A DNA stretch of 4,320 nucleotides from Escherichia coli (GTDB taxonomy: Bacteria > Pseudomonadota > Gammaproteobacteria > Enterobacterales > Enterobacteriaceae). Both the position numbers and the translations under genes were made by a program. The notes beneath the pieces are model-generated. The model was not told the DNA's origin and did not search any database. It saw only the letters and a program-made list of their open reading frames with translations. Location: NCBI RefSeq assembly GCF_003334315.1, contig NZ_QOWR01000100.1; one strand, given 5' to 3'. Of the stretch, positions 211 through 238 are shown piece by piece (the first letter of the stretch is position 1; every line of letters begins with the position of its first letter).

Positions 211-238
211 GGTGCGCCCAAGGGATGTTATGGTAAAT
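211..238 (+). promoter_or_regulatory. Candidate XerC/XerD site-specific recombination (multimer resolution) site: GGTGCGCCCAA-GGGATG-TTATGGTAAAT
   Basis: Right arm TTATGGTAAAT is identical to the XerD arm of ColE1 cer as I recall it (GGTGCGTACAA-TTAAGGGA-TTATGGTAAAT). Left arm GGTGCGCCCAA matches the XerC arm pattern GGTGCG...AA. The spacer is 6 bp (as in dif/psi) rather than the 8 bp of cer. Confidence 0.5.

Follow-up and report, generated by a model that had tools for sequence, protein, structure and literature searches.

The window, meaning the whole stretch of 4,320 nucleotides analysed here, starts and ends with the same 75 bp (positions 1-75 equal 4246-4320) and thus represents a complete circular plasmid of 4245 bp plus a 75-bp overlap. 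Ten PLSDB records from Salmonella and E. coli match it at 100% identity, and the Salmonella Enteritidis plasmid pK (NC_003456.1, 4245 bp) matches it at 99.9%. By this match it is the entire ColE1-type plasmid pK, which has been public for more than 20 years; a literature search did not find a paper describing pK. The replicon is of the ColE1 type, as indicated by the RNAI antisense replication-control RNA on the minus strand (1022-1122; Rfam RF00106, 99.2 bits, E = 1.2e-18) and by the mobilisation genes, with mobC, a relaxase ORF, mbeB and mbeD on the plus strand. The strand of RNAI places RNAII on the plus strand. The conserved ColE1 replicon starts with GATCTTCTTGAGATC (974-988, plus strand), where homology resumes in all relatives, and the hexamer TTGAGA at 981-986 is presumably, by analogy with pMB1/ColE1, the candidate -35 element of RNAII. 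A generic sigma-70 scan of positions 1-1100 returned no promoter, such a scan being uninformative for promoters with a 15-bp spacer. Further on, a conserved oriT block (AGCCAGTATACACTCCGCTAGCGCTACGTGACTGG…) occupies 1768-1812 on the plus strand.

The Xer site considered here (211-238) is flanked by two converging genes. On its left, a 172-aa ORF with an N-terminal signal-like segment (3772-4290, plus strand) ends at window 45 after the circular wrap, and on its right a 195-aa ORF with a lipoprotein-type signal (…AISGC…, the lipobox being assigned by inspection of the sequence) occupies 275-862 on the minus strand; Pfam and NCBIfam searches gave no family for either. A sequence-only reading of this DNA had placed the site between convergent 3′ ends, and it does lie between those at 45 and 275. 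The same reading regarded both genes as cargo and the site as lying outside the backbone, which is misleading. In ColE1, cer likewise follows the mob genes and is in turn followed by a convergently oriented lipoprotein gene, exc2, with its 3′ end within 5 bp of cer, so that a position between convergent genes is the normal layout of the family. Moreover, the left-hand ORF is not cargo, as it is co-inherited with the mob backbone and is 99-100% identical in the related plasmids L002, L003, L005 and L006; only the XerD side varies. DNA homologues of the 172-aa ORF, 84% identical, also occur on conjugative Klebsiella pneumoniae plasmids of 210-310 kb, and the ORF is therefore not confined to ColE1-like plasmids.

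What varies is a cargo slot extending from the XerD arm to the RNAII promoter (239-972), which holds one gene in pK and has no homology to L002-L006. Directly past the XerD arm, and just beyond the stop codon of the minus-strand ORF, this module contains a G+C-rich, terminator-like hairpin, GCCGCC-TGTAAT-GGCGGC (249-266), with fold z-scores of -4.6 on the plus and -4.1 on the minus strand and none of 200 shuffles as stable. It probably acts as a terminator, which would also shield the Xer site from transcription of the cargo. In NZ_CP135230.1, a 5073-bp pK derivative, IS26 has inserted into the cargo module, and the module match is interrupted near window 489.

Core and accessory sequences of the Xer site

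The core has the layout 11+6+11 and reads GGTGCGCCCAA / GGGATG / TTATGGTAAAT on the plus strand, that is, a predicted XerC-binding arm (211-221), a 6-bp central (crossover) region (222-227) and a predicted XerD-binding arm (228-238). The degenerate Xer pattern GGTGCGNNNAA-N6-TTATGKTAAAY has a single match in the window, with no mismatches, and occurs nowhere else in it when up to three mismatches are allowed; none of 200 dinucleotide shuffles of the window matched. A second, degenerate core in pK was considered and rejected, as a search with GATGTTATGGTAAAT (up to three mismatches) also found 211-238 alone.

The cores of four plasmid sites, unlike the dif sequence also compared, were taken from sequence records. 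They read GGTGCGTACAA-TTAAGGGA-TTATGGTAAAT for ColE1 cer (NC_001371.1), GGTACCGATAA-GGGATG-TTATGGTAAAT for CloDF13 parB (NC_002119.1), GGTGCGCGCAA-GATCCA-TTATGTTAAAC for pSC101 psi and GGTGCACGCAA-CAGATG-TTATGGTAAAT for pJHCMW1 mwr. The XerD arm of pK is identical to those of cer, parB and mwr (11/11 each), and its XerC arm matches cer at 9/11, psi at 10/11 and mwr at 9/11 positions. The earlier statements that the XerD arm equals that of cer and that the XerC arm comes close to it thus agree with the cer record. Judged by its bases, the closest characterised core is parB, with which pK shares both the central region and the XerD arm, in addition to a box of the TGCAT…ATGCA type, whereas the XerC arm of parB is only 6/11 identical. 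The mwr site shares a 6-bp central region ending in GATG and a ColE1-type replicon with pK but has CAGATG in place of GGGATG; its resolution is dependent on osmolarity and supercoiling (PMC2699498). As for psi, it is likewise a 28-bp site with accessory sequences, but its XerD arm and central region differ from those of pK, and it uses ArcA in place of ArgR (PMC5357621; PMC11724359). A psi-type assignment was rejected, because the palindrome of pK at the position of the cer box is of the ArgR type and the XerD arm is TTATGGTAAAT.

Upstream of the core, about 165 bp (46-210, plus strand) align with the accessory sequences of ColE1 cer and CloDF13 parB, with invariant blocks, and TTATC.GCGCGAT is a conserved block; around 1300 PLSDB plasmids match this region at least partly. 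An ArgR-box-like palindrome, GTGCATGGCTATGCATAC (97-114, plus strand), is aligned with TTGCATAGGTATTCATAC in cer and GTGCATAGGCATGCATTA in CloDF13, a position that we take to be the ArgR box of both. Its half-sites TGCAT/ATGCA both deviate from the E. coli ARG consensus TGAAT/ATTCA, a deviation that the CloDF13 parB box shares. Two conserved T-tracts follow on the plus strand 22 bp apart, at 146-149 (T146-148 invariant) and at 168-171 (invariant columns) in an alignment of pK, cer, parB and the more distant relative L004. Phased A-T tracts are a described feature of cer (PMC2831885).

The spacing of the box is slightly unusual. In pK, TGCATGGCTATGCA begins 113 bp before the XerC arm, compared with 114 bp in ColE1 cer, and in most of 109 related sites the motif TGCAT-N4-AT[GT]CA begins 114-115 bp before it. 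Most relatives with a 6-bp central region have 115 bp and most with 7 or 8 bp have 114 bp, which means that the distance from box to XerD arm stays at about 132-133 bp in the family, against 130 bp in pK. The 113-bp spacing could lower the efficiency of the site, and the non-consensus box might weaken it too, such weakening being known from mwr (PMC2699498).

The site runs from XerC to XerD on the plus strand and is co-oriented with RNAII, as in ColE1. ColE1-like plasmids keep a constant orientation of the Xer site relative to the origin, RNAII reading the accessory side first (PMC2831885). Arms with the 6-8 bp spacing, accessory homology, an ArgR-like box and this orientation are thus all present in pK, and the assignment to the cer family in the earlier reading is upheld. 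By sequence, 211-238 is a genuine and ordinary XerC/XerD plasmid site of an already known kind.

One feature of ColE1 cer may nevertheless be missing. The Pcer promoter and its Rcd transcript are present in ColE1 itself and unnecessary for recombination. The sole good promoter-like pair with 15-bp spacing near the ArgR box of ColE1 cer, a candidate Pcer, is TTGCAT-N15-TAAAAT; the same register in pK (97-123) reads GTGCAT-N15-CAAAAC, with the conserved last T of the -10 hexamer absent. The other candidate -10 of ColE1 cer, TACAAT, lies in the XerC arm and corresponds to CCCAAG in pK, and TAAAAT is retained in 14 of 64 distinct family members. With the -10 hexamers degenerate in both registers, pK may lack the Rcd checkpoint promoter. 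Rfam gave no match to the Rcd family in this region, RNAI being the only match, and the folding of segment 118-212 is not unusual (z = -1.4).

Cargo exchange at the core

Seen from the backbone, identity to pK stops at the core. Across the left ORF, the accessory region and the core, L002, L003 and L006 share 98.7-99.6% identity with pK, and L004 shares 82% over the same stretch up to 239. In all four, homology to pK breaks off where the XerD arm ends (238-239) and returns only at 973-974, shortly before the RNAII promoter. L005 breaks earlier, at 232, retaining the XerC arm and central region of the pK lineage followed by the different XerD arm TTATGTTCAAC and, as slot cargo, a restriction-modification pair; read in this way, its core is a hybrid. 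Leaving aside, in L005, the arm beyond the break, the core of L002, L003 and L005 differs from that of pK at 223 only. Together with five metagenome contigs, at least six unrelated right-hand modules are joined to a pK-type left arm, all six starting at or inside the XerD arm after a left flank that is 97.5-99.6% identical (the metagenome scan for this arm gave five loci, too few for statistics). L004 excepted, the same 97.5-99.6% conservation of core and accessory region is found across Salmonella, E. coli, Klebsiella, Enterobacter and metagenomes. The expectation that related plasmids would carry different cargo beside the site was correct for one side, that of XerD, with homology breaking at or inside the core.

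The converse is seen from the cargo side, as the pK module (239-972) is present on other backbones too. The 2576-bp plasmid pUGA14_3 (L118), which is without mob genes, has in front of the shared module an mwr-type accessory region, the XerC arm GGTGCACGCAA and the central region CGGATG. Left of 223, its accessory region is only 25-64% identical to that of pK per 50-bp window, and in a base-by-base alignment the last difference falls at 222, the first base of the central region. From 223 to about 1525, across cargo, RNAI, RNAII and origin, there are three mismatches. The differences at 222 (pUGA14_3) and at 223 (L002, L003 and L005) bracket the crossover within the central region, the place of strand exchange by XerC and XerD. 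In most comparisons the crossover can be placed no more finely than 219-238, owing to a XerD arm that is identical in nearly all relatives.

Other modules behave alike. The L002-type module follows GGTGCGCCCAA-GAGATG, GGTGCGCGCAA-GAAGGGA and GGTTCGTCGTC-GAGATG, and the L003-type module follows three different cores, so that each stands behind differing XerC arms or central regions (L002, L128, L126 and L006 for the former; L003, L127 and L026 for the latter). The earlier view of the Xer site as a point of cargo exchange is well borne out by the six modules after one left flank and by the pUGA14_3 switch at 222/223. A further recombination site at window 973 was rejected: the BLAST split there is a record start, the pUGA14_3 identity continues unbroken to about 1525, and in more distant relatives the conserved replicon simply begins at 973.

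Several individual plasmids depart from the simple arrangement. In L006 (NZ_AP027606.1), two cores are directly repeated (3034-3061 and 3810-3837): the first is of the pK type with accessory sequences and precedes a 0.75-kb module, and the second, GGTTCGTCGTC-GAGATG-TTATGGTAAAT, has no ArgR-like box upstream and is followed by the module of L002. This looks like the one-site insertion of a circular element at a Xer core. Besides mwr (about 3313-3342), pJHCMW1 (L125, NC_003486.1) has a second core-like sequence at about 456-485, CCGGCGGACAA-CGGATG-TTATGGTAAAT; its XerC arm is degenerate, mwr-like accessory DNA is absent on its upstream side, and it adjoins the PH-domain gene. The 4791-bp plasmid p3589 (L119, NZ_CP034969.1) resembles two pUGA14_3-like units of about 2.5 kb joined head to tail, with a Xer core in one copy only and the match of the second copy to pK starting at 253; possibly, the loss of one resolution site has fixed it as a dimer. 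Finally, a relative of the pK cargo in L123 (NZ_CP085730.1, 3864-5060) has the XerD arm TTATGTTCAAT and, between the Xer site and the lipoprotein-gene homologue, the enoyl-ACP reductase gene fabV, which we take to be a triclosan-tolerance determinant.

Central-region length and accessory factors

The sequence-only reading had contrasted the 6-bp spacer with the 8 bp of cer and suggested that it might change the dependence on accessory factors. A family scan of one genome per species with the pattern GGTGCG-N3-AA-N6-8-TTATGGTAAAT returned 109 cer-like sites, with central regions of 6 bp in 51, 7 bp in 39 and 8 bp in 19; CGGATG, GAGATG, GGGATG and CAGATG together outnumber the cer-type TTAAGGGA. 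The length had been given correctly, but it is no departure from the family, being the commonest one as well as that of the parB spacer, and the impression that 8 bp is the norm for plasmid cer-like sites is hereby corrected. Among the scan loci (L009-L117) are many short cer-like ColE1-type contigs in assemblies of Streptomyces, Streptococcus, Collinsella, Rhizobium and other non-enteric genera, most likely contamination by enterobacterial plasmids or cloning vectors.

Nor does the spacer imply an altered factor dependence, since pK has a full cer-type accessory region with an ArgR-like box and since sites of all three lengths are reported to act in an accessory-dependent manner on small plasmids. 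In a survey of 981 enterobacterial replicons, 28-, 29- and 30-bp sites could all recombine in an accessory-dependent manner, every small-plasmid Xer site had accessory sequences, and FtsK use was possible for 28-bp sites only (PMC11724359). Accessory factors are needed at mwr and psi, the 6-bp sites that have been studied (PMC2699498; PMC5357621). Ordinary cer-type control would accordingly be the default expectation for the pK site on this analysis.

Two departures from this expectation may be weighed. In the first, the 6-bp cores ending in GATG (GGGATG, GAGATG, CGGATG and CAGATG), which predominate in ColE1-like plasmids, would be relaxed in selectivity, recombining between molecules and at cores devoid of accessory sequences, and the slot between cer and ori would be a Xer-cassette system. 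We regard this as unlikely. If true, the second cores of L006 and pJHCMW1 would be footprints of single-site insertions, and the cer-to-ori slot of enterobacterial ColE1-type plasmids would be comparable to the pdif modules of Acinetobacter, in which genes move between plasmids with Xer cores as borders and which are flanked by pairs of cores without accessory sequences (PMC7399989). Plasmid pK itself was not classed as a pdif-like cassette, having a single core with accessory sequences and the RNAII promoter region as the other border of its slot.

In the second, which appears somewhat less likely still, the 6-bp core would be dif-like or independent of accessory factors, acting between molecules or under FtsK control and serving mainly to capture cargo. 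As a precedent, a ‘type II hybrid’ of cer and parB whose central region has 6 bp, attributed to Summers (1989), is said to have lost topological selectivity; its core would presumably differ from that of pK at two XerC-arm bases. The missing ArgR-like box upstream of the second cores of L006 and pJHCMW1 points the same way, as does the demonstration of FtsK-dependent recombination for 28-bp sites only (PMC11724359). Chromosomal dif and the pK site do share the 28-bp length and a 6-bp central region. Against this, dif is activated by FtsK without accessory sequences and resides on chromosomes or replicons well above 100 kb, the small-plasmid Xer sites of the survey all have accessory sequences, and even the 28-bp psi is mainly under accessory control (PMC11724359). 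With its complete cer-type accessory region and its multicopy replicon of 4245 bp, a size that contradicts an FtsK-controlled role, pK was not assigned to the dif type. Moreover, 6 bp is the commonest length in the family, and the mosaics are explained by intramolecular resolution of cointegrates without any loss of selectivity.

Mosaic structure of pK and a proposed route to cargo exchange

Cer-type multimer resolution, with the core doubling as a crossover junction, remains the preferred account, and it can be followed around the plasmid. The tract in which L002, L003, L005 and L006 are 99-100% identical to pK begins at about 1768, with the oriT block as its left end, and their RNAI/RNAII region is only 63-67% identical to that of pK. 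On these alignments, pK is a hybrid of two plasmid lineages: one contributed oriT, the mob genes, the 172-aa ORF, the accessory region and the XerC arm, and the other the central region, the XerD arm, the cargo and RNAII/RNAI/ori, the latter segment being shared with pUGA14_3 with its mwr-type XerC arm and accessory region. The identity to pUGA14_3 ends at about 1525 and not at oriT, and the stretch from about 1525 to 1767 belongs to neither shared tract, which calls for one more event at least, or for a parent outside the sample.

The site is, very probably, a multimer-resolution site of the cer/parB/mwr family that has also served as the Xer crossover junction and cargo-slot border of pK. 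We infer the binding of and dependence on XerCD, ArgR and PepA, dimer resolution and the cointegrate route as follows. By homology, host XerC and XerD would bind the two 11-bp arms, ArgR at the box (97-114) and PepA would wrap the accessory sequences of two directly repeated copies, and strands would be exchanged across the 6-bp central region within one molecule only, turning dimers into monomers. The same reaction could act on cointegrates of two different ColE1-like plasmids, formed at oriT or by homologous recombination in the replicon, and resolution of these at two heterologous Xer sites would produce hybrids.

Alternatively, the site might serve dimer resolution only, the borders having arisen by RecA-dependent homologous recombination within a selected accessory-plus-core block. 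This is quite improbable. The 188-238 block recurs in some 1300 plasmids with roughly 85% identity, which would make a short homology available for such recombination, and the far ends of the exchanged tracts lie in replicon or oriT sequence that is conserved and could plausibly support homologous recombination. The near ends argue otherwise: no comparison has its break more than a few bases from the core, L005 combines the XerC arm and central region of its backbone with a different XerD arm that came with its cargo, and the switch between pK and pUGA14_3 falls between positions 222 and 223, both in the central region. Furthermore, at the junction the putative parents agree perfectly over only about 15 bp (GATGTTATGGTAAAT), which is too short for efficient homologous recombination, given the minimal homology that RecA needs. 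A passively carried, decayed remnant that has lost recombination is very improbable, for although the ArgR box departs from consensus and its spacing misses the family norm by 1-2 bp, both arms are intact and the core and accessory region of the pK lineage (L004 excepted) are 97.5-99.6% conserved while the adjacent DNA has been replaced, which indicates recent activity and selection.

Exchange by Xer resolution of cointegrates, the reading favoured here, is close to a published one. As cited in three papers, the model of Tran et al. (2012) for small qnrB19-carrying ColE1-like plasmids describes a variable region bounded by oriT and the Xer site, exchanged by cointegration at oriT and then resolution at the Xer site (PMC10454011; PMC8683028; PMC6764390). 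The pK junctions at the Xer core and the oriT block, as mapped by alignment, fit this oriT/Xer model; pK differs in lacking a resistance gene and in that the tract shared with pUGA14_3 ends at about 1525, upstream of oriT. Because the normal, intramolecular and accessory-dependent reaction suffices for the model, no change in factor dependence is required.

Taken together, the Xer site of pK very probably serves as a stability element, besides being the fixed left boundary of the cargo slot. That the site acts as a recombination junction is already known for this plasmid family, and pK offers a clean natural example in which the crossover between lineages can be placed within 1-2 bases of the Xer central region. 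As such, it supports the published idea that small ColE1-like plasmids reshuffle their cargo via host Xer and relaxase sites, the cargo so reshuffled including restriction-modification systems and, in relatives, fabV.
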